Shown here: positions 171-19,263 of the stretch, one piece after another
Numbering within the stretch: position 1 is the first letter of the stretch
Layout of the letters: every line of letters begins with the position of its first letter
DNA from: Amphiscolops sp. MND2022
Taxonomy: Eukaryota
DNA length: 64,000 nt
NCBI GenBank assembly: GCA_964187785.1
Contig: OZ076409.1
Location: 930,001-994,000, forward strand
Direction of reading: 5' to 3'
The notes under the pieces: model-generated
Seen by the model: only the letters and a program-made list of their open reading frames with translations
Databases searched by the model: none
Told to the model about the DNA's origin: nothing
Translations under genes and position numbers: made by a program

Positions 171-2380
171 TTTGTCAGTTCAAGTCATTGAAGCGTTGCT
201 CGATTCGAACCTTTTCATGATCTCTCTCACAATCAATCATTTGTTGATCATTGTTTCTGGCAATTAAGTTTTGCGAATCCAGGCAAACTGATGTCACCGA
301 CTTTATCGCTATATTCATCCATATTAGTAAAATTAGCTTGGTTGTTGCTAGCACTATGAGCTCTGGTGATCACGATTTGGAAAGTTATCTGAGTTTAAAT
401 ATTGAAATATTGAATTGATGAAACAAAGATGGTTTTGAAGGAAAGTGTTTATGTATAGTAGTGTAACTGTTTTGAAATCAAAGATGAATACTGAGAACGT
501 CTGTACGTGTTGCAATCCAAAAATCGTACTGAATTTCATTCGTACCTTTTGCGGTACTCACTCCTAATTATGCTTCGTTAGTTATCTGCTTTATGATTGG
601 TCGTTACATCAGGTGTTAATAACAGCGCAATTACAACTGCACGTTAAAGTTGTCAATAACCAACATATACATGCACATATATGTTTATTTGCGCCTGCTA
701 CAAACTAATTTGAGTAATTAGTTATCGATTTGCACTGCATTGTGGTAATAACACTAAATTATTGCAACTTCTAACCACGGTTGAGGTAATTTTACAATGA
801 TGAACGATTTTTTCTAAATGTATACTAAGCGACGCTTCAAGTACAATTGATGACCAACGACAATAGTCGTTGTTTTGTATTTCGATGCTTTCACAGTAAT
901 GAGTATTAAAACTACTCAATTGTAGAATTCGATGTTTCTTGACAAAAAATATGAACTGTGTTGGTTTTCATGAAACTGTTTGAATACTTGGCGACCGGTT
1001 AAGCCAGTCGTCTTGTCCTTCTTCTAATTGTTCCATGAATATTGATGAAATAAATGGTTGAGTTTTTGAGTTTGTGACGAGTGGAGGTAGTAGTCGTTCG
1101 TTCTATTCATGCTTTCGGGCATGACATAATGGGAGTGATAAATGGTACCATTTCGATACTCTCAACCTCAGGTTTACGCAACAAACGAACGGGCCTTATC
1201 TATCCCTCTCATAACCGTTTCTACTCAAACCCTTTCCTCTCAAAAACAGCTGAAAGAAGAAAACTCCATTATAGTCGAACACCTACACAGAACTTTCTAT
1301 TACACCTGTCTTCAGTGGCTAAAAATTCACATCAGTCATTTTGTAATAATTGAGGAAAAATTCTAGAGATGTTGAAAAATAAGAATTTACATGGAAAAGC
1401 ACGAGATTTAGTGCCATCGATGGATCTATAGTATTCGCAGCAGCCTTACTTTGCTGAGAATAAAAACCTTTTCTGTTCAATTGCACTTTCCAGTGTTGAC
1501 TCTGCGGGCTGTAGAAAACAACAAAAAGCAGCAATTAATACAGTTGAGAGCTTAAAGTTTGCAACAGTAGTCCGCTGGATGATCAAAGCACCAATTCCCT
1601 CTTCGCACAGACCATTATAAAGTGTTGGAAAATTACTTCCTTCAACTTGAACTTTATTTTCTGTGAGCGTCTGGTGTGGAAATTGAATACGTTAACACCA
1701 ACAGCAGTTCTTACCACTTAGCTTGGACTCGTTTGCTTTTAACTTTCCTCTAATTGCTCAAAATTTCGAACTTCTGAAGTTTTTTGAAGCTCCAATTTTG
1801 CTACCTTTAAAGGAATGCATATGTGTTAATGTTTTCCTTATGCATAGTTATAACCACAGTCTTTATTCAATCGAAATTTGTTATGTATTTACATGCCGCG
1901 GGCCTGCGGCCAATGTGTATTGCTTATTTCGAAAAAAAATAGAAAATTCAGAGACCTTGCTGTGAAAGATCTTGTAAAACTTCCCTGCATCTTGGAAAAT
2001 CCTGTCAGCATCTCACTGTTTTTTTGAAAAATGTCCCTTCAGCTTGTAAAGTCTTTGGAAAAAACGATTGGCTACTAATGGAAATAATGACGATGCAAGC
2101 ATAGACTATTTTTGGAGAAAAATCGATTCAGCGTTGAAAAAAAAACGGGAAAACGCTGATTGTGCTCATTTATCGTTTTTCTGCTGTAATTTCGTCGTAA
2201 ATGCAAGGAAAAAAGATGCGAAGTAGTGGGAAAACAGCCGTGGGATGCCAACTGCAGATAAAAGTTGCAGATAAAGTAAGAAAAGGGAGGCTGTTGCGGT
2301 TATGGTGTTACATGTACTTCCGAATTGGATGCATTCAGTATTGAAGGGGGTGATTTTTTTCAGAAGGTGATTTTTTTCAG

Positions 2381-2481
2381 GTGATCAAAGTGACGGTGGG
2401 AGTGTTTCTGGTCTTCACCATCTGCTGGCTACCCCTCAGACTGTACCAGGCCATCAAAATCATGTACCCCCCAATCACCAG
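2381..2481 (+). CDS. Exon of a class A (rhodopsin-like) GPCR, TM6; tachykinin/neuropeptide-receptor-like
   Basis: Acceptor tttttttcAG, donor GTAAAT. Translates VIKVTVGVFLVFTICWLPLRLYQAIKIMYPPIT, with the TM6 CWxP motif. Ends in phase 2 (AG). Confidence 0.85.
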
Positions 2482-2982
2482 GTAAATATTGCACCCAACA
2501 GCCCCACCCCCCACGCCAGCTGCTAGTCATCAAAAACAGTCACATGTTCCTCAATAGGCGAAGCAAAAAAATCCATGCAGGTACTTTTACTCGCGTTTAA
2601 TCATTCGATAACTGCGTTTACTTATTCCTAGAGAATGAAATTCTTTATTAGTTAATGATTAAACGTAAGCAAAAGTAACTGTATGGATCTTTTTGCTTAA
2701 GATGCTTCTCTTGATCTTAAGAGCTTCTCCAATTGGGGATAGTCAGAGAAAATTGCAAGTTTCATTGCGGCATTTTTGTTGCACATTTCAAAGTCCCACT
2801 GAATTCCAAGATTCTTGAGAAAAATTCATCATGTTTTTTATACAGCGCTCTAGTTTTTCATACCATCCAGTGAGTTTTTAATAGTAAACTACAGTTAAAT
2901 TGCAAACAAAACAAAAATCCTGGCAATTTGCAAATAAGGAAACGTGATATCACTAATCATAGATTTGACGCTAATCGCTAAT

Positions 2983-4797
2983 TGTCATGCCAGCATGATG
3001 GAAATATAATCTACTAAATATCTGTAATGTAAATAATATGTCTTATGTACTTAGATATGGGCAATATGATGTCATATAATAAGATCTATGGTTGTGAGCA
3101 ACCCTACGTTACTTGTACCTAACCCCCCATTCCCCATTGAGATTTTGAGCTATTTACTTATCTAAATACTGAGCATTCTAGTTCCGTTTGTCCGCAATTC
3201 ATGATCGTGCTAATAAGCAAATGATGCTATTTTATATTTAATAGCTTGTCACGAGAAAGGAAAGTAGTCTCTCGGTCAAACTGGACCGCCATAACGAATA
3301 GACAAGATGGATACTCGCTAGGGAACTCCTGCCTCAGAGGAAACTAGCGTGACAAGCCTCCTCTCTTTGGAATACATGAAACGATGAAATAAAGATGCTA
3401 TTAGTGCTAGAACTCGTGATTTGATTCAATCTAACTGGTTTCATCCATATTACATCGCTCAAACACGACCAGAACACCAAAAACGAGAGAATTGAAAAGA
3501 CGATGTAAAAGCGATGAAGCTACTTGATTGAATACTTGTGACCACATGTTTCATCGTTTATGCATCACTCACGCTTCTAAGCCCTGAAGAACAGTGCTAA
3601 ACTAGCGAACGATGGAAAAGCGATGGAAATCTTTCATCGTTTTCTCATCTACAGCTAAAATCACGCTTCTAGACCTGACTACAGTGCTGAACGGCGAACG
3701 ATGGAAAAGCGATGGAAATCTTTCATCGCTTTCCCATCTATAGCAAAAATCATCTTTTAACGATGATAAAGTGATGTAACTACTCCAGAATTATATTCAG
3801 TGCTCTCCCCGTAACTCAGTTCATCGTTTTCACATCTAGTTGATCACTTCAACACTAGAGCGAAGCTCATTCATCATTTCTGCATCCACAGACATACAAA
3901 CAGAATCAACTAGTGAAAACGATGTCTAAACGACAAAACTTGTTATAACTTGCATTTTAATCAGTTCAACGATGAATAAACGACAAAACTTGTCATAATT
4001 TGCCTTTTATCGATTCAGTGCTAGCAAATCATCATTTATACATCCCCGTGCCTCCGAATTTGAACTCTATCCATTTTAGACACTAATTTAGCGCAATTGC
4101 AGTAACTATCATGACTCAGAGAACGCCTGCTGACATTAGTTCATTATAAATTCATGATAATTGATTTGAATTGTGTTATTGCGCAATTGCTAATTGGTAG
4201 CCCTCTTGCGGCATGCAAAACAACCGGTCACGTGACCAAGTGCTAATTAGCACTCACCCGACATCCAATGAGAAGGAAGCGATGGTAAGAATTGCGTCTT
4301 ACCATCGATCTGGTGAGAAGGCTACCAACTAAGACACACGATTTGCTATACCAGCACGATACACTTACATTCTCTGTTAGTTCTACAACACGTATAAAAT
4401 TGCCTTAGTCTTACTACATACTCTCATAATTCAACTCTTATCCGACATTCCTGTTTTTCATTGCTCATGAGTGTCGAATCTACTAAAACACTTCGAAACG
4501 GAAAAGTATTATCTAATTCTTTACCAGAAACTTCCTCGATCGACGCGAATAATATTCCCAATATTAACATGGAATCCTCAAATAATTTCTCAGAAGGGAT
4601 AAGCCGATCGGGTAGGAATTCGCCGACGAACGAAGATCATACTCAAGCGGCGAACGAAGAAAGATTTAATCGTCTGCAAGACGAAATGTCGATACTGAAG
4701 TCTCTGATGGAAAAGATCATCAGTCAAAACGAGGAACGAAACAAGCAAAACGGTGGTTCCTTTGCGACGTCGTCTTACGCCGTAGGGACCTCCAACA
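2983..4797 (+). repeat. 5' LTR (1815 bp)
   Basis: Begins TGTCATGCCAGC, ends GACCTCCAACA. Nearly identical to 17449-19263 (about 14 substitutions counted by eye). Contains an ~90-bp tandem duplication at ~3570-3750. Confidence 0.97.
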
Positions 4798-5948
4798 TGG
4801 TGACAGGAGTCAACAGGACTCACAGAAATCAACGACATCATTTCCAAGACGAAGAAGACGAAGACGACTACGAAGACGCACCCAGCAACACTACGGAATC
4901 TGCACTGCTCAACGCCATCCAGGATCTGCCTCGAAAATTGCAGAAAACCAACACAAAACTTCTTCAAACTCACGTGCCAAATTTCCGCGGATCAAAAGAC
5001 AAATACAACGAGTTCGAACACTTACTACTCAATCATTTCCGCCCCATCGCCAATAAAATCACGGAAGAAGATAAAATCCACTTCTTCCAGAGCTTACTTC
5101 GAGACGAGGCCATCGATTTTTGGCAAACTATCACTATAAGCTCAACAACGACACTGCAAGATGTCCTCCAACTATTCCGAAAAGAATTCGCAAAAGAAGA
5201 CATGAGGGAAGTTGCCAGATACAAATGGAACGAAGCCAAATACGACCCAACCACTCAATCATTCGGAGACTTTCTAAAAGACCTTAAGAAAATCGCCAAA
5301 CAAGCCTATGGCGACGAAGCTGATAAATGTATCAAGATGTTCCTTTTCGGAAAATTACCCGTAGACATCCAACAAGAGCTGACGATGGCTAATAAAGAAG
5401 ACAGCAGCCCTGAAGAGATAAAAACATACCTCCTCCGAAAATACCAATACCAAAACGTTATACAACAATCAACTTCGACATACCAGCCGTTCAACCAGAT
5501 GTCCGATAACAGCACCAAAAAAGAATTCACCCGATCTGACCAATCCCAATCCAAAACCGAGAACAAACAAAAAGGCAAATGTTTCTACTGCGGGAAACAA
5601 GGACATAGAAAACAAGAATGCCGAGGACGACAACGAGATGAGGCTAATGGCACAACCAAACCAGACGCCATACAACCAGCCAAACGACAAGACGACGACA
5701 AACCGAAATACAATCCAAAACTCGTTTGTCAGATTTGCGGATACACCGGACATTCCGCTAGAGATTGCCGAAAACGAATTCCCAAACAAACCAGCACTCC
5801 ATATGGACAACTCCCATACAAACGAACTGACGACCAGGAAAACAAAGAAAGACGACGTGAATTAAAACAACAACAACGCCCAATGAACCAACTGGAAATC
5901 CAAGATGACAACGCAGACCTGTCCTCAGAAGAACAGGATTTTCAGTAA
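4467..5948 (+). CDS. gag: Gag with two CCHC zinc knuckles
   Basis: ORF 4461-5948, first ATG at 4467. Capsid-like core (VPNFRGSKDKYNEFEHLL...LLRDEAIDFW); knuckles CFYCGKQGHRKQEC and CQICGYTGHSARDC. Confidence 0.93.
   Translation: MSVESTKTLRNGKVLSNSLPETSSIDANNIPNINMESSNNFSEGISRSGRNSPTNEDHTQAANEERFNRLQDEMSILKSLMEKIISQNEERNKQNGGSFATSSYAVGTSNMVTGVNRTHRNQRHHFQDEEDEDDYEDAPSNTTESALLNAIQDLPRKLQKTNTKLLQTHVPNFRGSKDKYNEFEHLLLNHFRPIANKITEEDKIHFFQSLLRDEAIDFWQTITISSTTTLQDVLQLFRKEFAKEDMREVARYKWNEAKYDPTTQSFGDFLKDLKKIAKQAYGDEADKCIKMFLFGKLPVDIQQELTMANKEDSSPEEIKTYLLRKYQYQNVIQQSTSTYQPFNQMSDNSTKKEFTRSDQSQSKTENKQKGKCFYCGKQGHRKQECRGRQRDEANGTTKPDAIQPAKRQDDDKPKYNPKLVCQICGYTGHSARDCRKRIPKQTSTPYGQLPYKRTDDQENKERRRELKQQQRPMNQLEIQDDNADLSSEEQDFQ
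4798..4810 (+). promoter_or_regulatory. Primer binding site (tRNA-Leu-like)
   Basis: TGGTGACAGGAGT directly after the LTR-terminal CA. TGG pairs with tRNA CCA, and the rest resembles the complement of tRNA-Leu 3' ends (recalled, not searched). Confidence 0.7.
5936..5942 (+). other. Putative -1 ribosomal frameshift slippery site G_GAT_TTT at the gag/pol junction
   Basis: GGATTTT lies just before the gag stop. The -1 frame is open from here to the protease ORF at 6125. Confidence 0.65.
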
Positions 5949-7282
5949 AGCCACAATTTCACTCCGCGAACAACCAACGTGCGCACCCATACTCTGACTC
6001 AACAACTCACTCTACTCGACAAACTCAACACAATCGTCTTCAGAGGTCTTGGCAGCCCTCTGGTGATTCCCGCAAAGCAGACGAAGTCTATCTGCGAAGA
6101 CACAAACAACCCGATGAACAACCGATGAAGTCGATGAAAACCAACAACAGGTTCACTCCATTGGAAAATTCACACGATGAGCAAACGATGAACTGGCATA
6201 ACGACGCATTGAGGCCTGCGCACGATGCCAAAGAGATGTCCCCACATCTACAATCAACAGACCGACTCTCAACCGATGACAAATCGACAAAACGAATTAG
6301 TAGTAAAACACATGCAAACGACAAGAATAGTATTCCAAAAACTAAAAAACATGCAACCAATAACCAATTTCACGTGCTTAGTCCCACTTTACATTTAAAT
6401 AAAAAGGATAAGATGTTGTTTGTCCCCCTCCAGTTTAACAATTACGAGAACCAAGGTCTTTTAGACACCGGAGCAGTGCAAAGCGCACTCTCAGAAGCGG
6501 AATTACGCAAAATCACCTCTGCTCATCCTGAAGCAGTGCTAGACGAACTACCACCCCCTAACTTTAAAGTTCAGATAGCCAACGGCAATCTAGTCCCAAT
6601 TCGAAAACAAGTTCTTTTGCGCTTTTTCATAGCAGGAAAAGTCTTTGAAGAAGTCTTTTTAGTCCTCCCCACGATGGGAACGATACTGATTGGCATGTCG
6701 TTTTTTGAAAAATACTCTGTCAACCTGGACATTAAAAATCACCTAGTCCATTTCCCTAATCACATGATGTCAATGCAAGTGAGACAACAGACGAATAAGA
6801 AGTTCAAAACTGGGTTAATTGATTTGTATTCCAGCTGCAGAACAATCATCCCTCCCCGCCATCAAGTACTGATTGAGGTCCACAGTGACGCGGACATCTC
6901 ACGTACAACTGGCACGGTCGAAGGGACTCCAGCATTCATGCGCAAGACGTGCCTCTTGGTGTCTCCAGCAGTGGTTGACCTAGACGATGGAAAAACGATG
7001 ATTCAGGTCACCAACCCCAATGAGCACGTGTACACACTCGAGGCCAACACGAACCTGGCCAATTTCAGAATACCAACGCCCCATCAAGCAGCCAACATAA
7101 CGCCGATGCCAGTAGAGCACTTGAAGTTGATCACAGACCACCCCGAGGATGCAGCAGCCGTGATCAATCAACTTTTTGTGAATCCGGAGATGAAGTCTAC
7201 AAAATGGTACCCGACGCCAGAGACGTGTAGTGAGCCAGACAAACTCAACCAGATCGAAAGACTCAAATTTCATTTTCGATGA
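5936..7282 (+). CDS. pol: Pol N-terminal part: aspartic protease plus beta-rich linker
   Basis: LLDTGA protease motif and ILIGMSFF. Separated from the RT frame by a frameshift near 7260-7275. Confidence 0.88.
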   Translation, partial: GFSVKPQFHSANNQRAHPYSDSTTHSTRQTQHNRLQRSWQPSGDSRKADEVYLRRHKQPDEQPMKSMKTNNRFTPLENSHDEQTMNWHNDALRPAHDAKEMSPHLQSTDRLSTDDKSTKRISSKTHANDKNSIPKTKKHATNNQFHVLSPTLHLNKKDKMLFVPLQFNNYENQGLLDTGAVQSALSEAELRKITSAHPEAVLDELPPPNFKVQIANGNLVPIRKQVLLRFFIAGKVFEEVFLVLPTMGTILIGMSFFEKYSVNLDIKNHLVHFPNHMMSMQVRQQTNKKFKTGLIDLYSSCRTIIPPRHQVLIEVHSDADISRTTGTVEGTPAFMRKTCLLVSPAVVDLDDGKTMIQVTNPNEHVYTLEANTNLANFRIPTPHQAANITPMPVEHLKLITDHPEDAAAVINQLFVNPEMKSTKWYPTPETCSEPDKLNQIERLKFHFR

Positions 7283-10200
7283 GATTGTGGCTCTCAGAGA
7301 ACTGGAGAAGCTCGATCCCGCCCGCTCCCATGACGAACGAGTCAAGTTCCTGCAGAACTTCAAGTGGGACGAATCGCTTCTCTCTCCGTCTCAACAAGCT
7401 CAGGTAGAGGAGTTGCTGGTAAAGTACAACTCCATTTTTGCTAGACATCGTTTAGACATCGGCATGAATACTGATTTTAAGGTAAAACTAACTCCCCAGC
7501 ATGAAGAACCAGTTTACTCTCAAAGTCTCCCTACTCCCACTAACCTAAAAGATGACTTGCTTGTAGAATTAGCGTTAATGCAGGAGTACGGGATTATAAC
7601 TACTCTTCCTTGCAGCAAATACTCTTCACCGATATTTGCACAACATAAACCGAATGGTAAACTAAGGATTTTAGTTGACTTGCGGAGAATCAACCACCTG
7701 ATCAAGAACGATTACGGAGAACATAACCACCCCGTTACAACTGTTGCAGACGCTGCTCAGCATATGGCCGGGAAAAAATACTTCTGTAAACTAGATTGTT
7801 CCCAGGCCTACCATTGCATTCCAATGGCCGATGAGCAGTCGATACAACTTTTGTCTTTTAATTTTGGATCACGTACCTTTGCCTTTCTTAGGCTAGCTCA
7901 AGGTCTTAACCGTTCTCTTTCAGCCTTCACGAGCGTAGTCCGTGAGTACTTGGACCCCTTGGTCAAAGCGGACCGCTGTGCCCAGTATGTTGACGACATA
8001 GGCATAGCAGCAAACACGCCTGATGAATTGATTGAAAATTTAGAACTTGTTTTTCAGCAGTTGACCAAAGCTGGATTGAAACTCAGCATGAATAAATGTG
8101 AATTTGGCCAACAGCAAATTGAATACCTTGGCAAATCTATTTCTAGCACCGGAATAGCACCCATCGAAAAACGAATAACAGATTATTTGAAAAAGCTCAA
8201 ACCACCCAATTCAGTTAAAGCTCTCCAACGGTACTTAGGATTTGTCAACTTTTACAGGTCCTATATTCCCCGGTTGGCCGACAAAACAGCCGTTTTTCAC
8301 GAGTTAATCAAAAAAGACACCATTTTTAAATTAGAACAACGCCACAAAGATGTAATTTTTGACATCAACGAAAGTTTACTCAAGGCTACTAAACTGTCAT
8401 TGAAACTTCCCCTCCCGGACAAACAACTAGTAATCATGTGTGACGCGAGTGAGCATGCAGCAGGTTATGTCCTTCTGATAGAAGACTACTCTGAAACACA
8501 ATCGGGTAGCTTAAAGAAGTACGCGCCAGTTGCCTCTGGCTCTAAGAAATTTCAGGGTGGACAGATGTCATTAACAATGTACGCCAAAGAGTTTTTGGCT
8601 ATGCATTTCGCATTCGATGAGTTCGGTCACAATCTGTGGGGTTCGAAGAAGCCTATAATTGTAATGACAGATAATAAAGCACTCACCCGTTTCTTTCAGG
8701 CCAAACACATACCACCGTCACTTTGGAATTTTTGCGACCAGACACTCCAATTTAATTTTATTTTAGCACATGTACCAGGTATCGAGAATCCCGCGGCGGA
8801 TTACCTATCCAGATTGGAAATTAGACCTGAAGAACGTGTTCATTTAAAATTAACTGATTCCATTCCAGTCCATTACATAGAGATCGACATTGCCTCGAAG
8901 ACGCCAAAGCAGGAGGACGATGAACCAGACTACTTCCCTCCAAGCGAACCACTGAGACAGAGGAAGTCACACAATGTAAAAACGATGAAAGTGACCAACC
9001 CTGAGACACTGATGCTCGACGATGGCAAACCGATGAAAACAGTTGACGTGGAGACGACGACAATTAATGACGATGACAAAACGATGAATTGTGTAAAATC
9101 AGCACCACAGGCCTCTGAGAACGACCACACAAGCTGCCCTCAGATCTACCGACTCATGACTGATGATCAATCACCAGTGTACACAAAATTCATCATTAAA
9201 ACATCGTTACTAAACCCAGTAACGAAGGAGGTTAGCCCCTCCGGGGGAGTCGATCTAATTTTAGCTCAAAAAACAAATAGCGACATACAACTGATGTTAA
9301 AAATTTTGTCTGGAGAAACTACCTTGAACCACTCTGTAAACTTGATGTCAATTTTTTTCCAAAAACTTCACAAAATTCGAAAACGCCTTGAAAATGTAAA
9401 CGGAGTCCTGTACCGTATCTTTTATGACCATACAGGCCTTGAGTCCCATAAACAAATTGTTGTACCTGAACAAGTGATGTTAGAAATAATCAGGTTTTTC
9501 CACAACAACCCCGTGCAGGGACACCCTGGTTCTAAAAAGATGCTACATGAACTACGAAAACGCTACTACTCTCCCAGTTTAGCCGAAAAAACACAAAAAA
9601 TTCTAGAAAGTTGTGAAAATTGCATGCGATCAAAATCTACGAATGAATCAAACCTACGCCCGCCGTTGCAGAAGATATACGATCCGTGTAACGGCCCTAC
9701 TGACCTTCTGGAGATAGATATAGTTGGACCACTGCCCGCTTCGAACGGCTTTACCCACATTTTGACCGCAATCGACGTATTTTCGCGTTATATGTTTGCC
9801 GTACCACTGCGTAAACCTGACACAAAGTCTGTTATCAACGCCCTTCTGTCGGTATTCGCCAAACACGCATACGTTCCAACACACATCCTCACAGATAAAG
9901 GATCCGTTTTCACCGCTGAACTGTTGGAACAACTCATAAAAACCGCCGGCATTGAAATCTCCCATGCAACGATAAAACATGCACAAACTATAGGCATGGT
10001 CGAGAGAAGTCATGCAAAACTTAAAAAGATTTTAAAAATACATGTAAATGTAGACAGACCACAATGGGACCGCTATGTCGACATAGCAATCATGGCCCAC
10101 AACACCACGTACCACGCTTCTCTGAAATGTTCACCAACTGAGATCTTTCACGGACGCACTCCATACAACGCTTTGGACCTAAAATACTCTAACCCTGAAA

Positions 10201-11105
10201 GAAGAGTCGACACCAAATTTGGAGACGTCAACGAAATCTTAGACCGCATGAACGAAATTTACCGCGACAACACCGACAACATAGTAGCTGCGTACCACAA
10301 GTACAAAGCTTACTATGACAGAAAAGCCAAAGCCCAACCTCTCAAGGTAAACGACTTTGTTTTCCTACTTGACCCCAAATACGACTCTCAGGGTTGTAAA
10401 GAAGAGTTCAAGACCTTCCACTGGAAGGGTCCGTTCAAAGTGATGAAAGTGCTATCCGACAGTAACTACATCCTTCGGAAAGTAGGAACGTTCAAGACAC
10501 AATGCGTTCATCGCATACGATTGAAAATTTTCAAACCAGAATTCCCTGTAAAAGACGTAGACATTGGTAACCAGCCAGTATACGCTGACACGGATCGCAC
10601 TGAAGACTCTGATATTTTCGACTCGCACGTACCGAGACAACCTGAAACAACCTCGGAACCGGATGAACCAGAAACTGATGAAGAAACACCAGTTGACAGA
10701 GTCATTCGACTAAATTCTCCAGATTACAGACAGGCACTCAGACGCGACAGACCGCTAAATCGACTACCGAACCGACTGTCGTTAACACCACAACCGGAAA
10801 TAATCATCGACGACCCACCTCAAAAAGGCCCACAGGTGCAGTTCAATGAAAACGATGAGATAATTCCACAAGATATCACTGAAGACACATCAAAACCGCC
10901 AAAACCATTAAAAATACCTACCAACACCGAGACACCCCAACAGGTGAACAATGACGAAACGCCAAATCTGATAGCAACAAGGACAAATAAAAGCAAATAT
11001 AGTCTACGCGAAAATCCTCAACCGAAACGCTACTCAGACTTCCTAATTCACGAAATCTCAACTGCTCGAAACGCTCTACGTAAAACAAACACTGTTCTGC
11101 AGTAA
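7230..11105 (+). CDS. pol: Pol: reverse transcriptase, RNase H, integrase
   Basis: RT LRILVDLRRIN / KLDCSQAYH / YVDD; RNase H CDAS...TDNKAL...ADYLSR; integrase H-H-C-C (HNNPVQGH...CENC), IDIVGP / TDKGSVF / VERSH DDE core, GPF motif. Confidence 0.96.
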   Translation: MSQTNSTRSKDSNFIFDEIVALRELEKLDPARSHDERVKFLQNFKWDESLLSPSQQAQVEELLVKYNSIFARHRLDIGMNTDFKVKLTPQHEEPVYSQSLPTPTNLKDDLLVELALMQEYGIITTLPCSKYSSPIFAQHKPNGKLRILVDLRRINHLIKNDYGEHNHPVTTVADAAQHMAGKKYFCKLDCSQAYHCIPMADEQSIQLLSFNFGSRTFAFLRLAQGLNRSLSAFTSVVREYLDPLVKADRCAQYVDDIGIAANTPDELIENLELVFQQLTKAGLKLSMNKCEFGQQQIEYLGKSISSTGIAPIEKRITDYLKKLKPPNSVKALQRYLGFVNFYRSYIPRLADKTAVFHELIKKDTIFKLEQRHKDVIFDINESLLKATKLSLKLPLPDKQLVIMCDASEHAAGYVLLIEDYSETQSGSLKKYAPVASGSKKFQGGQMSLTMYAKEFLAMHFAFDEFGHNLWGSKKPIIVMTDNKALTRFFQAKHIPPSLWNFCDQTLQFNFILAHVPGIENPAADYLSRLEIRPEERVHLKLTDSIPVHYIEIDIASKTPKQEDDEPDYFPPSEPLRQRKSHNVKTMKVTNPETLMLDDGKPMKTVDVETTTINDDDKTMNCVKSAPQASENDHTSCPQIYRLMTDDQSPVYTKFIIKTSLLNPVTKEVSPSGGVDLILAQKTNSDIQLMLKILSGETTLNHSVNLMSIFFQKLHKIRKRLENVNGVLYRIFYDHTGLESHKQIVVPEQVMLEIIRFFHNNPVQGHPGSKKMLHELRKRYYSPSLAEKTQKILESCENCMRSKSTNESNLRPPLQKIYDPCNGPTDLLEIDIVGPLPASNGFTHILTAIDVFSRYMFAVPLRKPDTKSVINALLSVFAKHAYVPTHILTDKGSVFTAELLEQLIKTAGIEISHATIKHAQTIGMVERSHAKLKKILKIHVNVDRPQWDRYVDIAIMAHNTTYHASLKCSPTEIFHGRTPYNALDLKYSNPERRVDTKFGDVNEILDRMNEIYRDNTDNIVAAYHKYKAYYDRKAKAQPLKVNDFVFLLDPKYDSQGCKEEFKTFHWKGPFKVMKVLSDSNYILRKVGTFKTQCVHRIRLKIFKPEFPVKDVDIGNQPVYADTDRTEDSDIFDSHVPRQPETTSEPDEPETDEETPVDRVIRLNSPDYRQALRRDRPLNRLPNRLSLTPQPEIIIDDPPQKGPQVQFNENDEIIPQDITEDTSKPPKPLKIPTNTETPQQVNNDETPNLIATRTNKSKYSLRENPQPKRYSDFLIHEISTARNALRKTNTVLQ

Positions 11106-11200
11106 GTAGAAAACGGCAGAAAACATGTAAAAGACGATCTCACATCAAATCGATGGTTAAATAACACTCCATCGTGAAGAAACAGTAACATTACGAAAAA

Positions 11201-12140
11201 GCGATGTAAATCCGATGGAACTTTTCCATCGGAGCCACATCGCCAGCAATCCACTGAAAAGACCAAAAATGTTTAAATGATGGATCACGCCCACCGTTTG
11301 TACATCCTTACCTTCTCTTTGACCATGCCACAGTAATATGCTGAAGCTTTCTCATCTGGTTATTAGTAATTCGTAGGCCTCGCCTCGTGCCAACTCAGGT
11401 AGGTAACACAGCCGCTAGCACGGTTCACACAAATGTACACATGAAACGATGGAAAACAGATACGCCATCGACCTCTTTAAAACAAAACAGTTAAACGATG
11501 TAAAAGTGCTGGAAATCCTCCATCGTTTCTACATCCCCCTATCTCTCTACACTTACCTTCAATAAAAAGAGAATCAATCCTCAATCGTCAACAGACCATA
11601 GGCTTTGCCTTGGGTTGACTCACGGTTCATTACCGCCCTGATTGAGGACACCGAATACATACAAATAATCCCATTAAAAGGATCATAAAACGCCAAAGAA
11701 TGAGAACGATGAAAAAACGATGGAAATCCTTCATCGTTAACTCATCGTCAAATTCTCCCCAACACAAACGTACCTAGTCATCAACTAAACGATGCGAATA
11801 CGATGAAAATGTTTCATCGTTCTCTCATCGTTGCACTTACCACCAGACGAACCAAACACACTAATCGCAACGATGCCAAAACGATGGAAAATCCCCATCG
11901 TTCACATCACGATACACGAAACTACCTAGAAAGTACTACGATGGAAAAACGATGGAAATTTCCCATCGGTTGCCCATCGCTGATAAAATCCTAAGAAAAA
12001 TTCAACAATCCTCACTCAACGATGGAGTATCGATAAAATCTCTTCACCGATACACCCATCGTCTCCTAAATCAACGCCACACTCACAAAACCCTCCAGAA
12101 CGATGTGATTACGATGGAAATTTCCCATCGCCTACACATC
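11201..12140 (+). repeat. Array of ~45-nt CGATG...CATCG hairpin units with unique spacers, downstream of pol
   Basis: Units start at ~11201, 11494, 11705, 11788, 11869, 11937, 12018, 12099; the last six are 68-83 nt apart. Consensus aACGATG-N4/5-ACGATGgAAAT-N3/4-CATCG-N4/5-CATC(G). Confidence 0.85.
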
Positions 12141-12536
12141 TCTTCAAAAGTACATGAAAACGATAAAAGCATGTAAATAAACGTCCACACATGAAAATTA
12201 AACGAATACATTCTCTGCTAAGCGGAAATACAAACGAAACATGCATTCCAAAAGGTGCTCCTATACCGCCCTATCAAACAACCTTATAAACTGTATATGG
12301 AACAAAAACCAAAACTCAAAGCCCTTACAAATTCCTTGAACTTACTCGAAACAAAAGATCGGAGTAAAAATCAATTACCCACCGAATTACACAGTCTTCA
12401 ATTTAAAATTCTCTCTATCTACAAACGCAAATGGCCAACAATGTTAATACAGTGTAAGCGCTCTGCACTTACCAAACAGAATAAAATGTACATAATCTAT
12501 CAAGTTCACAGTCTAACAAAATAAATATCACGATCT

Positions 12537-15500
12537 TCAAATTCTGTGTTCCCCTCCAATTTCTGGACTTTCAACTCTTCCTCCTTCTACGGTAAAACTC
12601 ATTCGTTCCATAACTGAATCTCGGTATCCATCCGCAGCGACTCCTCCGACTTCCTTCCATAACTCTCCCAAAGTAATAGTCCGCAAATCATTCACTCTTC
12701 CAAGAGCAGCTACACATTCCGCCACTAATCCATCCGGAATACTTTGTAGACTCCTCACTCCACGAGAAGTACACCAACTCAGAACAGTACGGAACATGCT
12801 TGACAATGACTCTGACGATAGACTAGGCAAACCGAAATTATCCAGATTCCAACTCTGGCTGACTCCACCACTCAAACAGAACACAAACTGCATCAATCGT
12901 CTCAAACTCACATTAGTCGCCCCATACTGCCACAATTCGTGCTCATGCCCAGATAAATCATATTCTGCCACGTGGTCATCTCTAAACTGCCCAACAAACC
13001 GCACAAATGAGTCTATCATAGCTGTCTTTTCGGCATACAACACTCGACCACTACACTCTAGAGCTTCGACTAAATAACCGACAGTCTCTTCTAACTCCGA
13101 CACACGTCCATACATCAGAACTTCCGGACTCCAACAACTAAGTGCCATGTTAATTTGATCGGACACCTGCGGCATCTGCAGAAGATTGAGAGCAACTGTC
13201 ATAAAAAATTCTTCGACAACAGTGACTGCATGTTGATATTCCCCCCCACAAGGATAATACACTCGGTGCGACTCAAAAGTTCGAAACATAAGCCCTTCTT
13301 TTGCAGCACTCAAACGAAGACTGCTTAGCCGAAAATTTGCCCAGCGTTGCAATTCGTAAGCTTGAGGTACCGTCCCAGGCTCAGCAACCAGCAGACACAG
13401 CTCACGCACTGCAGCAAATACCTCGTAGACAATGTGTAGCCCTCGATACAATCCTTCACCAAAGGTCCGCTTCATCTTCTCAAACACTAAAACAGACAAG
13501 AACAACGATAACCAACGCGATTACAAGAAACGATGTCTTTCCAATGAATCCAAAGTATTCCTATTTTCTTGTCTTTGTATATCACAGTACTAAAACAGGA
13601 CGATGACGAACAGATGCAACATACCTACAAATCCATAATTATCTTAATAGTACTTCCACCCAACTTAGTTACAAATGAAAAACACCAATAATAACCGATC
13701 GTATACACCAATTCCATAGCATGCAACTTGAGCGACAGTCCAACTTCCTTCGAGATCAGTAGCTCCATCCGCAAGGGATCCACACTTCGAGACACATGGT
13801 CAAGCCGTTCCACCAATGCCAATATGTCGTTCCACGATCCTCGCAACTCGTTTAGTACCGCCACAATTTCCCAATTCGAAATCTCGCCATTCACAGTACA
13901 CTAAAATAAAACACTCAGAAAGTCAGCCTAGCCATAAACATAAAAATCCATACACCCTCCATCCTACACACGAAACCACTCTCACGCTAACAGATCAAGA
14001 TCCCTAACCCATACGACTTAAAAATTACATCAGAAATTCATACTAACACGCAACAATGCAGGACAAGATGATAAGAGGGGATCAGTCATACTATCGCGCA
14101 GTTTCGTCAAAAAGAAGTTCATAACCACATGCACGTCCTGCCCAGGGAACACAGACAATCCAGTCGTAGTAACCACACGCAACAATGACTCCAACTGCAG
14201 TGGATTCACATCCAAACATCTCCGTCCGCCTTCTTTCTCCATTAATCCTCGTATTGAAGGCACTTTTACACAACTGAAACCCACTGGCGCAAGCTCTTCT
14301 GCAAAACAACACCAGTAATCCGCGAGCCACTCTGACATCCTCTCTTCCCAGTCTCTGATAGCTACAAGCTCGAACAACACATACCCTTGCAACGCCTCGG
14401 TGTCCGCTACTGTCACTGAACATCGAACCACATTCCGCTTTAGCTCCAAATAGAAACCAACAGGGCACTCTCCACATAAAGCCATCGAAATAGATCGTAC
14501 CACGTATGGCCATACCCCGAAAATCAAAAGCGCCTAAAACACATGTAAAACAAAATAACCAAACAGAACTAACACCAGCACACCGTTATAACACAAATAT
14601 CACCCTTGTTCTAAGCAAATTCACACATACAAACATGTAACCTATGTAACACATGTATTTCATGTAACATATACTCACAATAACGTCCTCTTTTCGACAT
14701 ACGCCTCCGAAGAGACTCCCGTAGGAAGCATCAGTTGTTGCGACGGAATCCCATAAATCTGTGACGCTCGTAACATCTCCGCCTCGGTAGAGAGCATCGA
14801 CAACGAAACACAGAAACAGACGCAAACTGCGCTCGCTGTCAGGCACTTCGAGTACACCCGAGTCCCAGATACTGCCGCCTCTTGCTTCCGCCGCAAACAC
14901 CTCTTGCACCGAAAAAGCCGGACACACCTCCACATCTGGCACAGATAGACCTCGAATCTCTTCTTCCATGTCCGCTGCTTCCACGGCGCTCATCATTGCC
15001 CCGGTCCTCCGACGCAGAAACAAACCACGCCGAGAACGCACAACGCAGTCTAACTTGTGATGGACCACACCACGACAATGCTCTAGAAAGGTCGAAAGGC
15101 CTCGGCTCCCGACCTTCAGATCACTCCGGCACAGCAGACATCGTACGTACGCATCGGACGACCTATGAGTCCGTGCGAAACCCAGAGACATCCCTGCGTA
15201 CGGATCTTGGAACCAGCTTGCTCTAATGCTGTTCCTTGCAACTAAAACAAAGTTTGATGATAAAACGATGAAACCCCTCGCTCTAGCAGCTAACCCACGT
15301 TCTCCGCTTGCGTAAAACGATGAAAAAACGATGTTTTCACTTAACGCTAACAACAAAATTAGAACGATGAAAAACCGATGTTTCTACTGCAAAAAGCCAG
15401 AAAACGCCCTAAGACGACAAAAGACGGCCACCAAAACGCAAAGTACGAAAAATAATCAAAAACCCGAAAACAAAACTAAAATGTTTAACTAAACACTTCA

Positions 15501-16492
15501 ACCGATAAGTTCAGTAACCTGATAACATTAACATATTGAAATTACGGTGAATCACATGATCCTTGAAGCTGTTTAGTTTAACTGACCGAACGAGACGACG
15601 GGTGGAAACTACAGCATTGTCAACAGATGAACTGCCCCCGTCAGATGTGCTTGATTCATCACCAGCAGACAGGGCTCCTGGAACTACACAACCACCCACA
15701 ACAGCCTCAACACTTGATACACCAGCATCCATCGGAACTTGCTCTTCTGCATCGACGCCTGCTGGATCCATTCGACTGCTGGGTGAAGACTCAATTGAGA
15801 ACTCACGTACTGTTTGTGTGGCGACACTCTGCGGAGCCCCTTCCTGGTCAGAACCACACGCCACAGACATCATGTGGCGAACGACAGGCCTCTCCAAGCC
15901 ATACGCCTCTCGCGGGACTGAAAGCAACAGAGTTCATCATTGTTACATCGCGGAATCCACTTCGCTGACAAAGAGATGAATCTAATGCGAATCCACTTAA
16001 ATTGCTACAACAGGCGATTTAAAACCACGAATACAAACAAAAGTGTCACTTACTGGCACTGGCAAGCTCTTCTCGCATTACATGCCGAAAGTAACCGTCA
16101 TACCAATGCAATGACAGCGACCCAAGAGATTGCTGCCACGGAGAATACACTGAAACGACATCATGAATGAATAACGATGATTGAACGATGGAGAACATAA
16201 GTTGGCACACTTCTCGAAAAGAACGGCAGTCGACTCACTCTGTGGATACAAGGGCATGAACGGCTGAGGTCCCGATGGAGTCTGAATGGGCGTCATGGGC
16301 CCCACCCCCGTCAGTTGGGTATACACCCTAGGGCTCCCAGACCCAGAAGGCGTCGCTTGATCTGCAACAGCTAAACGAAATTTATCCACATTAGAGTTGC
16401 ACCAATCCACCACAGACGTGAAGATGAAGAATGAATAACTAACGAATTGGGTTAGAATCACCGAAAGGATTCATATGTTGGTCGTCATACAT
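12537..16492 (-). CDS. Spliced antisense accessory gene of the retrotransposon (~1016 aa; BED-like zinc finger plus hAT-transposase-like body)
   Basis: Hand-built exons on the minus strand: 16492-16444, 16370-16197, 16149-16054, 15917-15587, 15306-14679, 14533-14048, 13900-13629, 13589-13525, 13486-12537. All introns GT-AG, all phases compatible, 3051 nt with no internal stop. The 5' exons are less certain than the last five. Confidence 0.8.
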
Positions 16493-17448
16493 CTTGACGA
16501 TGACAAATGGAAACAACGATTGCAATCTGAAAGAAAACACGACACGATTGAAAGAAGGATAGTAAATGTGAACTCAATTTGAAGAAACGAAATCAACAGT
16601 AATCGACAAATATAATGGCCTGATCAACCGTGATATGAGATCGATTTCAACCTTAAAATATCAAAGAAGCAAAACGTTTCGACTACATCTAACAATACAC
16701 TCTCAAAAGACAAAAAATCTGCTCAAAATTCTTCAATATTGATTCAATTTCACTGCCTCCTTCCACCAACTAGCAGAGGAAACACCAGTTTGAATGGACC
16801 AATTTACTCAAAATACTGTGGAAATTTTCTCAAAGTGTTAGATGCAGCTGCCAGCGTCGTTAGCAATTTGAATGATTTACACACTCAGCGGAAAGACGCA
16901 CTCGAAATTGTGGCTACTTTATTTACTTAATAACTCATCAAGATAACTGAACGTTTCCGTCTCGCACACAGTTGGCATTACTGCCGCTCCACCACGCAAG
17001 TTATTACATAATATTTTGTTCACGCTTATTCAACTCTCCATCACAAGTTCATCGCTCTCCGGTCACGTGTTATTCATTCTCTCCAATCTATCAGACGAAA
17101 CGATGCTACCAATTCCAATTGTGAACAAATTCCAGCGAGATTCTACAAATCACTCCTGACAGCTATTTTCAAGCCGATCTGCGGACAATCGACGGGCCAA
17201 GAACTAGAACTGACGCGTCCAAACTTAACCGAAATAACCGAGCTCACACCAGATACCAAACCGATGAAACACGTCTCCTTCTCAGAGAAGACACAAATGA
17301 GACAGAACCAACGAAGGCACAAAACCATTGAGAACCAACGAAGGCCACTCCCCTGAGACCAGCGAAGGAACATGTCAAAGCCCACGCTGCGACAACCATC
17401 CTCTGCACATTTGGCCCCTGCACTCCTCTTCCAAATTCCCCCCGGGAG

Positions 17449-19263
17449 TGTCATACCAGCATGATGGAAATATAATCTACTAAATATCTGTAATGTAAAT
17501 AATATGTCTTATGTACTTAGATATGGGCAATATGATGTCATATAATAAGCTCTATGGTTGTGAGCAACCCTACGTTACTTGTACCTAACCCCCCATTCCC
17601 CATTGAGATTTTGAGCTATTTACTTATCTAAATACTGAGCATTCTAGTTCCGTTTGTCCGCAATCCATGATCGTGCTAAAAAGAAAATGATGCTATTTTA
17701 TATTTAATAGCTTGTCACGAGAAAGGAAAGTAGTCTCTCGGTCAAACTGGACCGCCATAACGAATAGACAAGATGGATACTCGCTAGGGAACTCCTGCCT
17801 CAGAGGAAACTAGCGTAACAAGCCTCCTCTCTTTGGAATACATGAAACGATGAAATAAAGATGCTATTAGTGCTAGAACTCGTGATTTGATTCAATCTAA
17901 CTGGTTTCATCCATATTACATCGCTCAAACACGACCAGAACACCAAAAACGAGAGAATTGAAAAGACGATGTAAAAGCGATGAAGCTACTTGATTGAATA
18001 CTTGTGACCACATGTTTCATCGTTTATGCATCACTCACGCTTCTAAGCCCTGAAGAACAGTGCTAAACTAGCGAACGATGGAAAAGCGATGGAAATCTTT
18101 CATCGTTTTCTCATCTACAGCTAAAATCACGCTTCTAGACCTGACTACAGTGCTGAACGGCGAACGATGGAAAAGCGATGGAAATCTTTCATCGCTTTCC
18201 CATCTATAGCAAAAATCATCTTTTAACGATGATAAAGTGATGTAACTACTCCAGAATTATATTCAGTGCTCTCCCCGTAACTCAGTTCATCGTTTTCACA
18301 TCTAGTTGATCACTTCAACACTAGAGCGAAGCTCATTAATCATTTCTGCATCCACAGACATACAAACAGAATCAACTCGTGAAAACGATGTCTAAACGAC
18401 AAAACTTGTTATAACTTGCATTTTATTCAGTTCAACGATGAATAAACGACAAAACTTGTCATAATTTGCCTTTTATCGATTCAGTGCTAGCAAATCATCA
18501 TTTATACATCCCCGTGCCTCCGAATTTGAACTCTATCCATTTTAGACACTAATTTAGCGCAATTGCAGTAACTATCATGACTCAGAGAATGCCTGCTGAC
18601 ATTAGTTCATTATAAATTCATGATAATTGATTTGAATTGTGTTATTGCGCAATTGCTAATTGGTAGCCCTCTTGCGGCATGCAAAACAACCGGTCACGTG
18701 ACCAAGTGCTAATTAGCACTCACCCGACATCCAATGAGAGGGAAGCGATGGTAAGAATTGCGTCTTACCATCGATCGGGTGAGAAGGCTACCAACTAAGA
18801 CACACGATTTGCTATACCAGCACGATACACTTACATTCTCTGTTAGTTCTACAACACGTATAAAATTGCCTTAGTCTTACTACATACTCTCATAATTCAA
18901 CTCTTATCCGACATTCCTGTTTTTCATTGCTCATGAGTGTCGAATCTACTAAAACACTTCGAAACGGAAAAGTATTATCTAATTCTTTACCAGAAACTTC
19001 CTCGATCGACGCGAATAATATTCCCAATATTAACATGGAATCCTCAAATAATTTCTCAGAAGGGATAAGCCGATCGGGTAGGAATTCGCCGACGAACGAA
19101 GATCATACTCAAGCGGCGAACGAAGAAAGATTTAATCGTCTGCAAGACGAAATGTCGATACTGAAGTCTCTGATGGAAAATATCATAAGTCAAAACGAGG
19201 AACGAAACAAGCAAAACGGTGGTTCCTTTGCGACGTCGTCTTACGCCGTAGGGACCTCCAACA
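17449..19263 (+). repeat. 3' LTR (1815 bp)
   Basis: Begins TGTCATACCAGC, ends GACCTCCAACA, followed by TSD CTAAT. Confidence 0.97.

Follow-up and report, generated by a model that had tools for sequence, protein, structure and literature searches.

What maintains a regularly spaced array of hairpin-like units between two converging genes of a retrotransposon? The question is raised by a 64,000-nucleotide stretch from Amphiscolops sp. MND2022 (contig OZ076409.1 of assembly GCA_964187785.1, positions 930,001 to 994,000), referred to here in its entirety as the window, in which a preliminary description had reported ~45-nt hairpin units at 11201-12140. The array belongs to a young, 16.3-kb Ty3/gypsy-type long terminal repeat (LTR) retrotransposon and, as had been described, occupies the gap between two convergent coding regions, that of pol, with its stop at 11105, and that of an antisense cargo gene, with its stop at 12537. 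Here, we show that the array reduces to a 15-bp word, GATG-N7-GATG, which is distributed through the whole element and conserved well beyond it, and we propose that the word probably functions on DNA as a protein-binding site, for which the zinc-finger product of the antisense gene is a tentative candidate binder.

A phased word in the element

The basic module of the array consists of two half-sites, rAAACGATG, phased at 11 bp and thus about one helical turn apart. GATG-N7-GATG occurs 51 times in the window compared to 1.55 +/- 1.38 times in shuffled sequence, with 50 of the copies inside the element. Among GATG-GATG spacings of 4 to 20, the only one enriched is 11 (27 pairs on the plus and 23 on the minus strand), any other spacing being represented by 0-2 pairs, and the 47.7 kb flanking the element within the window hold just 1 and 0 spacing-11 pairs on the two strands. 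CGATG is found 103 times, 73 of them inside the element, to which all 20 CGATG pairs placed 11 nt apart are confined; inverted partners of such pairs are present only in the array and the LTRs. Read in their own orientation, dimers of both strands share an A-rich linker and have C as the letter preceding the second GATG, giving tandem 11-mers of the form rAAACGATGnn. Across the 1.07-Gb genome, dimers with an inner inverted arm number 701 + 778 (~1,500 palindromic units), compared to 0 + 0 for the reversed control. The sole dimer of the window outside the element, at 417-431, reads GATGAAACAAAGATG and may be a chance occurrence or a fragment of another copy.

Besides the array, dimers in both orientations occupy the LTRs and the gag-pro and pol coding sequence, as well as DNA upstream of the antisense exon that encodes the zinc finger. 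Those outside the array are as follows (RT, reverse transcriptase):

3383-4044, in the 5' LTR: 12 dimers, plus and minus orientations alternating, with tight palindromic pairs at 3611/3635 and 3700/3724
6113..6238, plus strand: three dimers at the gag-pro junction, conserved in diverged elements
6986..7000, plus strand: single dimer in the protease frame, kept in 6 of 7 other aligned elements
7446..7460, minus strand: single minus-orientation dimer in the RT frame, with CATCG-N6-CATCG unchanged in six of seven other elements and altered by one letter in the seventh
9021..9086, plus strand: a pair of dimers, at a distance of 51 nt from each other, within the variable linker of RNase H and integrase, with a third upstream in sister copies
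15256..15380, plus strand: three dimers directly upstream of the zinc-finger exon, on the 5' side of the cargo

Units and spacers of the array

Approximately 11 hairpin-capable units lie between pol and the antisense gene, comprising six double-stem units (11201, 11706, 11789, 11938, 12019 and 12100), two partial units (11870, with a decayed outer 3' arm, and the irregular 11495), single hairpins at 11150 and 11446, and a decayed hairpin at 11274 that is still intact in close copies. Grouped by position, and with z denoting folding relative to dinucleotide shuffles, they form four features without strand assignment:

11150..11175: single hairpin CGATGG..CCATCG, z -2.15, 95.8% paired across 47 copies
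11201..11244: first double-stem unit, a plus dimer followed by a minus dimer, z -8.8
11446..11536: single hairpin (11447/11466) and irregular double unit (11496..11535), identified by folding and alignment
11706..12143: six regularly spaced units (11706, 11789, 11870, 11938, 12019 and 12100) with unrelated spacers

The preliminary description proved accurate on most of these points. The ~45-nt units are present, its two example units (11201 and 12018/12019) fold as they were drawn, and the extent it gave holds apart from the start, which lies slightly earlier, at ~11150. The six units from 11706 to 12100 were said to be spaced ~80 nt apart and have start-to-start distances of 83, 81, 68, 81 and 81 nt. 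The spacers are indeed unrelated to one another, with a mean alignment score of -0.186 compared to -0.184 in shuffles (103 of 200 shuffles scored as high); similarity between units is high, at 0.40 compared to -0.17, a score that none of 200 shuffles reached. A repeat search recovered seven copies of a 44-nt family, at 11201, 11266 (degenerate), 11706, 11789, 11870, 11938 and 12100, and a second family of 16 nt that brings in the unit at 12019. The ~80-nt period was not detected by Tandem Repeats Finder, which returned only two 11-nt repeats of two copies each.

In the window's family most arrayed sites are head-to-head pairs, and it is this arrangement that gives the units their hairpin appearance. 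One family carries an extra unit and spacer inserted in the array (10 of 47 aligned copies; loci L046, L048-L052, L054-L058, alignment columns 786-868), and copy L014 has three tandem 11-mers where other copies have two; the array thus varies in whole units as well as through slippage of 11 nt. The inner arms and loop at 11954-11963 and 12116-12125 read GGAAATTTCC, which fits the loose Rel/NF-kB-type consensus GGRRNNYYCC and may be no more than a by-product of GATGGAA facing TTCCATC.

Conservation within and beyond the family

Selection was assessed on 30 copies from the same genome, four of them near-identical to the window copy and 26 at 75-80% identity. Measured against the 26 diverged copies, the window copy is 93.6% identical at the CGATG/CATCG cores, 78.2% at other hairpin positions and 65.7% in the spacers, and CpG retention is 90.6% within the motif versus 70.7% elsewhere. 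The dispersed dimers follow the same pattern, being present at the same places in seven further full-length elements from diverged families. At 6113..6238, all 120 GATG positions are identical across five diverged elements versus 89.9% of the remainder, and at 9021..9086 all 64 are identical across four diverged elements versus 83.0% across the remainder of 8900-9200. Ahead of the zinc-finger exon (15256..15380), 92 of 96 GATG positions are identical versus 63.2% for the surroundings, and AAACGATGAAAAAACGATG is kept there in 8/8 elements despite poorly alignable flanks. The array and the word are thus clearly under selection, far beyond chance.

Comparison with a large sister family, whose RT is 91% identical to that of the window's family, separates the word from its palindromic arrangement. 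Across the five sister elements compared, the antisense gene is very different (26% identity in the C-terminal exon, 29% in the middle exon and 46% in the finger exon), and a full-length copy carries 53 dimers with a looser core, NGATG. These dimers are placed in four regular arrays, head-to-tail and 59-70 nt apart. The LTR region holds one of them, made of 16 minus-orientation dimers; two others occupy the interval separating pol from the antisense gene, and the fourth lies upstream of the latter. Inverted partners within 75 nt accompany 0 of 122 sister plus dimers, compared to 4-13 of 24-30 in the window's family. Based on this comparison, the hairpin appears not to be the conserved feature and palindromy to be a family trait, with the word, its phasing and the regular arrays being what is conserved.

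Dimers are present in all 13 cargo-bearing stretches, with 44-55 in each of nine full-length and 28-30 in each of four half-length ones. Six cargo-less Gypsy elements from two other families of the same genome contain no dimers inside their LTRs; their pol is ~26% identical (46% in part of integrase for one of them) and they have no relative of the antisense gene. Five minus-orientation dimers were observed just past the 3' LTR of an unrelated Gypsy element (L091, first ~1240 bases; G_C2 16764-17518), probably in a neighboring fragment of the motif-bearing lineage. Separately, elements E50 and E54 (L069-L072) are near-identical to the window copy in gag-pro and pol (6000-9200), yet only 56% identical in the C-terminal exon of the cargo (12540-13520), a pattern that fits an exchange between elements of the region downstream of pol.

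The antisense gene as a candidate source of the binder

The antisense gene and its finger exon have the following layout:

12537..15383, minus strand: antisense cargo gene, with open frames at 12537-13520, 13625-13900, 14030-14533 and 14586-15383, the last encoding a conserved C-x2-C-x16-H-x5-HH zinc finger

A 51-residue core around this finger is 68.5% identical between the two cargo types, compared to 37.5-44% for the rest of the exon and 26-29% for the other exons. The finger is therefore the best-kept part of the protein, in keeping with a motif that has itself stayed unchanged, and in all eight elements sites immediately precede the finger exon; on both grounds the cargo protein is the best candidate binder. 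By its residue pattern, C-x2-C...H-x5-HH, the finger could be of the BED type, and Atlas gave a weak lead for the finger exon (PF18658 zf-C2H2_12, at 0.75). A search for longer homologous proteins found none, and a profile search of 1.8 billion proteins returned 99 relatives, all of at most 282 aa, with no full-length annotated relative among them. Two other leads on the origin of the cargo were rejected: the viral polymerase clusters that Atlas proposed for the C-terminal exon form an inconsistent set, flagged as probably wrong by Atlas's own notes, and a relic DNA transposon around the cargo could not be recognized, there being no inverted terminal repeats around 11000-17500 apart from the motif itself.

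Proposed protein sites on the element's DNA

We propose that the word functions at the DNA level, and probably as a protein site, whether for the element's own zinc-finger protein or for a host factor. Since the same word is found on both strands and isolated minus-strand sites are conserved, duplex DNA fits the data better than a single RNA strand. Of the roles that the preliminary description had offered for the array, dimeric protein sites come closest to the evidence. A more specific version, which we put forward tentatively and at somewhat less than an even chance, has the zinc-finger protein of the antisense gene binding the arrays on the duplex DNA of the element. A multimeric, sequence-specific protein would then load cooperatively on the arrays. 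The placement of sites in the LTR and ahead of the antisense gene would make control of the element's two promoters, through activation or protection from silencing, the likeliest effect, and the large array between the convergent genes could serve as a loading platform or boundary.

Several observations weigh against assigning the sites to the cargo protein. No Pfam family reached its cut-off in the antisense gene, and its four frames remained empty even at E <= 10; zf-BED (PF02892) matched below threshold only, in 1 of 12 family members (E 0.069) and 2 of 39 relatives (13.4-14.9 bits at best, with a cut-off of 20.6), at E values of 0.027-0.081 overall. A profile of the finger exon searched against Protein Data Bank (PDB) sequences gave nothing meaningful (best E 0.99), its AlphaFold2 model was unusable (predicted local distance difference test score, pLDDT, 48.7), and an all-helical model of the C-terminal exon (pLDDT 64.5) had no Foldseek match in PDB at E <= 0.001. 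A transposase ancestry of the cargo was not recovered in these Pfam and Foldseek searches. Furthermore, all cargo-bearing elements represent one pol lineage (RT at least 90% identical), so that the association of cargo and motif amounts to one event in evolution, with which Gag, integrase or a host factor would be just as compatible. Divergent cargos share the GATG-N7-GATG core rather than having words of their own, and the cargo therefore cannot be separated from pol as the partner of the motif. Lastly, the palindromes of the window's family carry a pairing signal beyond the motif, described below, that independent binding of half-sites does not predict.

A broader scenario extends the cargo-protein proposal to its origin. 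Here, an animal LTR-retrotransposon lineage would have taken up a zinc-finger gene derived from a DNA transposon as its own site-specific DNA-binding system with ~50 sites, a scenario that we consider doubtful, albeit worth stating. Its sites would extend over LTRs and coding sequence, the promoter of the acquired gene itself and the intergenic platform, and the protein could coat or loop the provirus, thereby activating two promoters, shielding it from silencing or tethering its DNA. Viral counterparts of such a system are Tas with its response elements and EBNA1 with oriP.

If the binder were not encoded by the element, the arrays would be binding-site clusters for a host transcription factor or insulator protein, acting as an enhancer or boundary in the LTR and the internal region. 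All motif evidence would suit any sequence-specific DNA binder, and an LTR and the front of an internal gene are the usual places for host-factor sites. Yet ~50 sites per element, some of them fixed in coding sequence, would be unusual for a host factor, and the word occurs only once in the 47.7 kb of flanks and not at all in the six other Gypsy elements of the genome. No known factor with this word could be named, and the Su(Hw) consensus YRYTGCATAYYY had 0 matches. We regard a host factor as rather unlikely on balance, despite the precedent provided by the Su(Hw) site array of the gypsy element (PMC3384341).

Hairpins, covariation and small RNAs

The units could instead act as folded hairpins in RNA or single-stranded complementary DNA, perhaps bound by a CGAUG-reading protein, with packaging, export, dimerization or the ending of converging transcripts as proposed roles. 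Folding on the plus strand is indeed better than in dinucleotide shuffles for 10/10 units tested (z -2.2 to -8.8), with 0 of 200 shuffles folding as well for nine of the ten, and in an alignment of 47 orthologous copies, with shuffles and slid partners as controls, 89.9% of stem cells are paired compared to 21-55% with slid partners. Additional signal comes from the variable base beside the GATG core, which is complementary in 8/10 unit lineages with three pair types (G:C, U:A and A:U; rough binomial chance < 0.01). Among 88 distinct full units, some from loci of uncertain strand, this position is Watson-Crick in 78% compared to 32% in shuffles, and unit 12019 shows compensatory states at one pair (AU 40, GC 3, UA 3). 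It is these palindromes that hold the pairing signal weighed above.

Nevertheless, we judge a function as folded hairpins improbable. The covariation that the preliminary description had suggested did not rise above control levels across the orthologs, where 10 pairs changed on both sides compared to 8.1 +/- 2.0 in shuffles (115 of 500 shuffles were as high), and the covariation score of 0.038 fell inside the slid-control range of 0.007-0.052; the stems stay paired because their letters are conserved. The minus strand of the units folds about equally well as the plus strand, and there is no excess of G.U on the plus strand (151 G.U versus 341 A.C cells; shared states 8 versus 27). As the A.C excess can be explained by the A/C-rich composition, it is not counted here in favor of the minus strand. 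No Rfam family came near its threshold: a search of 11000-12600 at E <= 10 gave 10 weak matches, all below threshold. ARAGORN found no tRNA in the element. Nonpalindromic dimers are conserved equally well, and the hairpin is dispensable given that the sister family has arrays without inverted pairs. Of the two alternatives in the preliminary description, selection on structure and selection on a palindromic binding site, the evidence leans toward the binding site, while selection as such is clear.

Hairpin shape and a position between convergent genes could also point to small-RNA precursors, either microRNA-like or small interfering RNA, arising from the zone of sense/antisense overlap. This is very improbable: known precursors have longer stems than the 6 + 9 bp seen here, no microRNA family scored higher than 31.1 bits (MIR447) versus a threshold of 200, and conserved non-hairpin dimers and the sister family would be left unexplained. 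Decay of a tandem duplication without function of its own, to which a unit number that differs between families, the extra unit in some copies and the slippage in L014 might be attributed, can be dismissed almost entirely, as mutually alignable spacers, the sign of such an origin, were not found, the cores are far better kept than their surroundings even at CpGs, and dispersed sites are kept as well.

Other features of the element

The remaining parts of the host element are those of a Ty3/gypsy retrotransposon with TG..CA LTR termini and a 5-bp target duplication, CTAAT:

2983..4797, plus strand: 5' LTR, 1815 bp, the LTR pair being 99.2% identical
4461..11105, plus strand: gag (zinc knuckle), protease and RT-RNase H-integrase frames, assigned by Pfam
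17449..19263, plus strand: 3' LTR, 1815 bp, carrying the same dimers as the 5' LTR at 17849-18510
11575..11650, plus strand: conserved block with a predicted three-way junction and without the GATG motif, 97.2% of cells paired in 47 copies

Sense frames matched zf-CCHC, RVT_1, RT_RNaseH, Integrase_H2C2 and rve, with gag-asp_proteas below its cut-off. The plus strand of the element is strongly A/C-rich over 4001-18000, where GC skew reaches -0.37 and AT skew +0.27. Between 10900 and 12700, neither of the poly(A) signals AATAAA and ATTAAA occurs on the minus strand. The block at 11575-11650 is the best-conserved non-motif part of the intergenic region (86.9% over 11560-11650 versus 65.7% for other spacers). 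It contains two pairs with double changes, and one stem changes from G:C to A:U in three copies; it matched neither Rfam nor a tRNA, and has no counterpart in the sister family. Another short word, ACATG(A/C)AA, recurs 3' of the array at 12140-12260, and in the 2.75-kb intergenic region of the sister family (L083, ~2300-4500; F83 9500-11700) ATGCAA is found 13 times and TACATG 10 times.

Relation to known systems

Full-text searches of the literature returned no phased GATG dimers or arrays of this kind in animal Gypsy elements, the supplements of PMC11963269 being outside their scope. Parallels are therefore drawn here with systems that share part of the arrangement. The BED finger of BEAF binds CGATA clusters in flexible arrangements, and the resemblance of BEAF-32/DREF sites to those described here lies in a clustered, CGAT-containing word, theirs being bound by a multimeric zinc-finger protein with insulator and promoter roles (PMC5021357). 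In the present element the fixed 11-bp pairs are built on CGATG (NGATG in the sister family), and BED identity is below threshold.

The Su(Hw) array of Drosophila gypsy comprises 12 sites. As here, a Ty3/gypsy element carries a regular array of zinc-finger sites whose spacers matter little (PMC3384341), but that of gypsy is a single array in the 5' leader with a different motif and a host protein as its binder. Foamy-virus Tas (PMC4929722) is likewise an accessory DNA-binding protein of a retroelement with sites in the LTR and before its own gene, although it is encoded in the sense direction and has few sites of unrelated sequence, with no phased dimers or arrays.

In hAT transposons, the N-terminal domain of the Ac transposase binds many subterminal AAACGG repeats cooperatively (PMC3260210). 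The Ac/Ds arrangement shares with the element in the window many copies of a short word in both orientations, clustered near a gene whose product is transposase-like, putatively so in the present case, and the half-site here also starts with AAACG. In contrast to hAT elements, no terminal inverted repeats flank the cargo, and sites are strictly paired at 11 bp and found in the LTRs and pol as well.

The closest positional match is offered by plant Ty3/gypsy elements of the Retand/Tat group, in which tandem-repeat arrays and antisense open reading frames (ORFs; TRP28) lie between pol and the 3' LTR (PMC11963269). The antisense ORF there, which carries a transposase-type domain name, is held to be probably DNA-binding, and the paper states the function of the arrays to be unknown. 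The element described here has a repeat array paired with an antisense gene in the same region. The arrays of Retand/Tat are head-to-tail, detectable by Tandem Repeats Finder and family-specific in sequence, whereas here only a 15-bp word repeats amid unrelated spacers, is shared by families, and reaches into the LTRs and coding sequence; the three or more head-to-tail copies of a whole unit that define Retand/Tat/Ogre-type arrays were not recovered by Tandem Repeats Finder. The cargo differs too, in having introns and a zinc finger and no match to TRP28. In Gypsy elements bearing antisense genes, repeat arrays of the pol-3' LTR interval are widespread, again without a known function according to PMC11963269, and in the element described here such an array reduces to a precise word with 11-bp phasing, conserved in ~50 copies per element and accompanied by the gene of a candidate binder. 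A vague "hypervariable region" thereby becomes a concrete and testable protein-DNA hypothesis which, if true, would show that a dedicated DNA-binding regulator and its sites can be taken up and retained jointly by retrotransposons.

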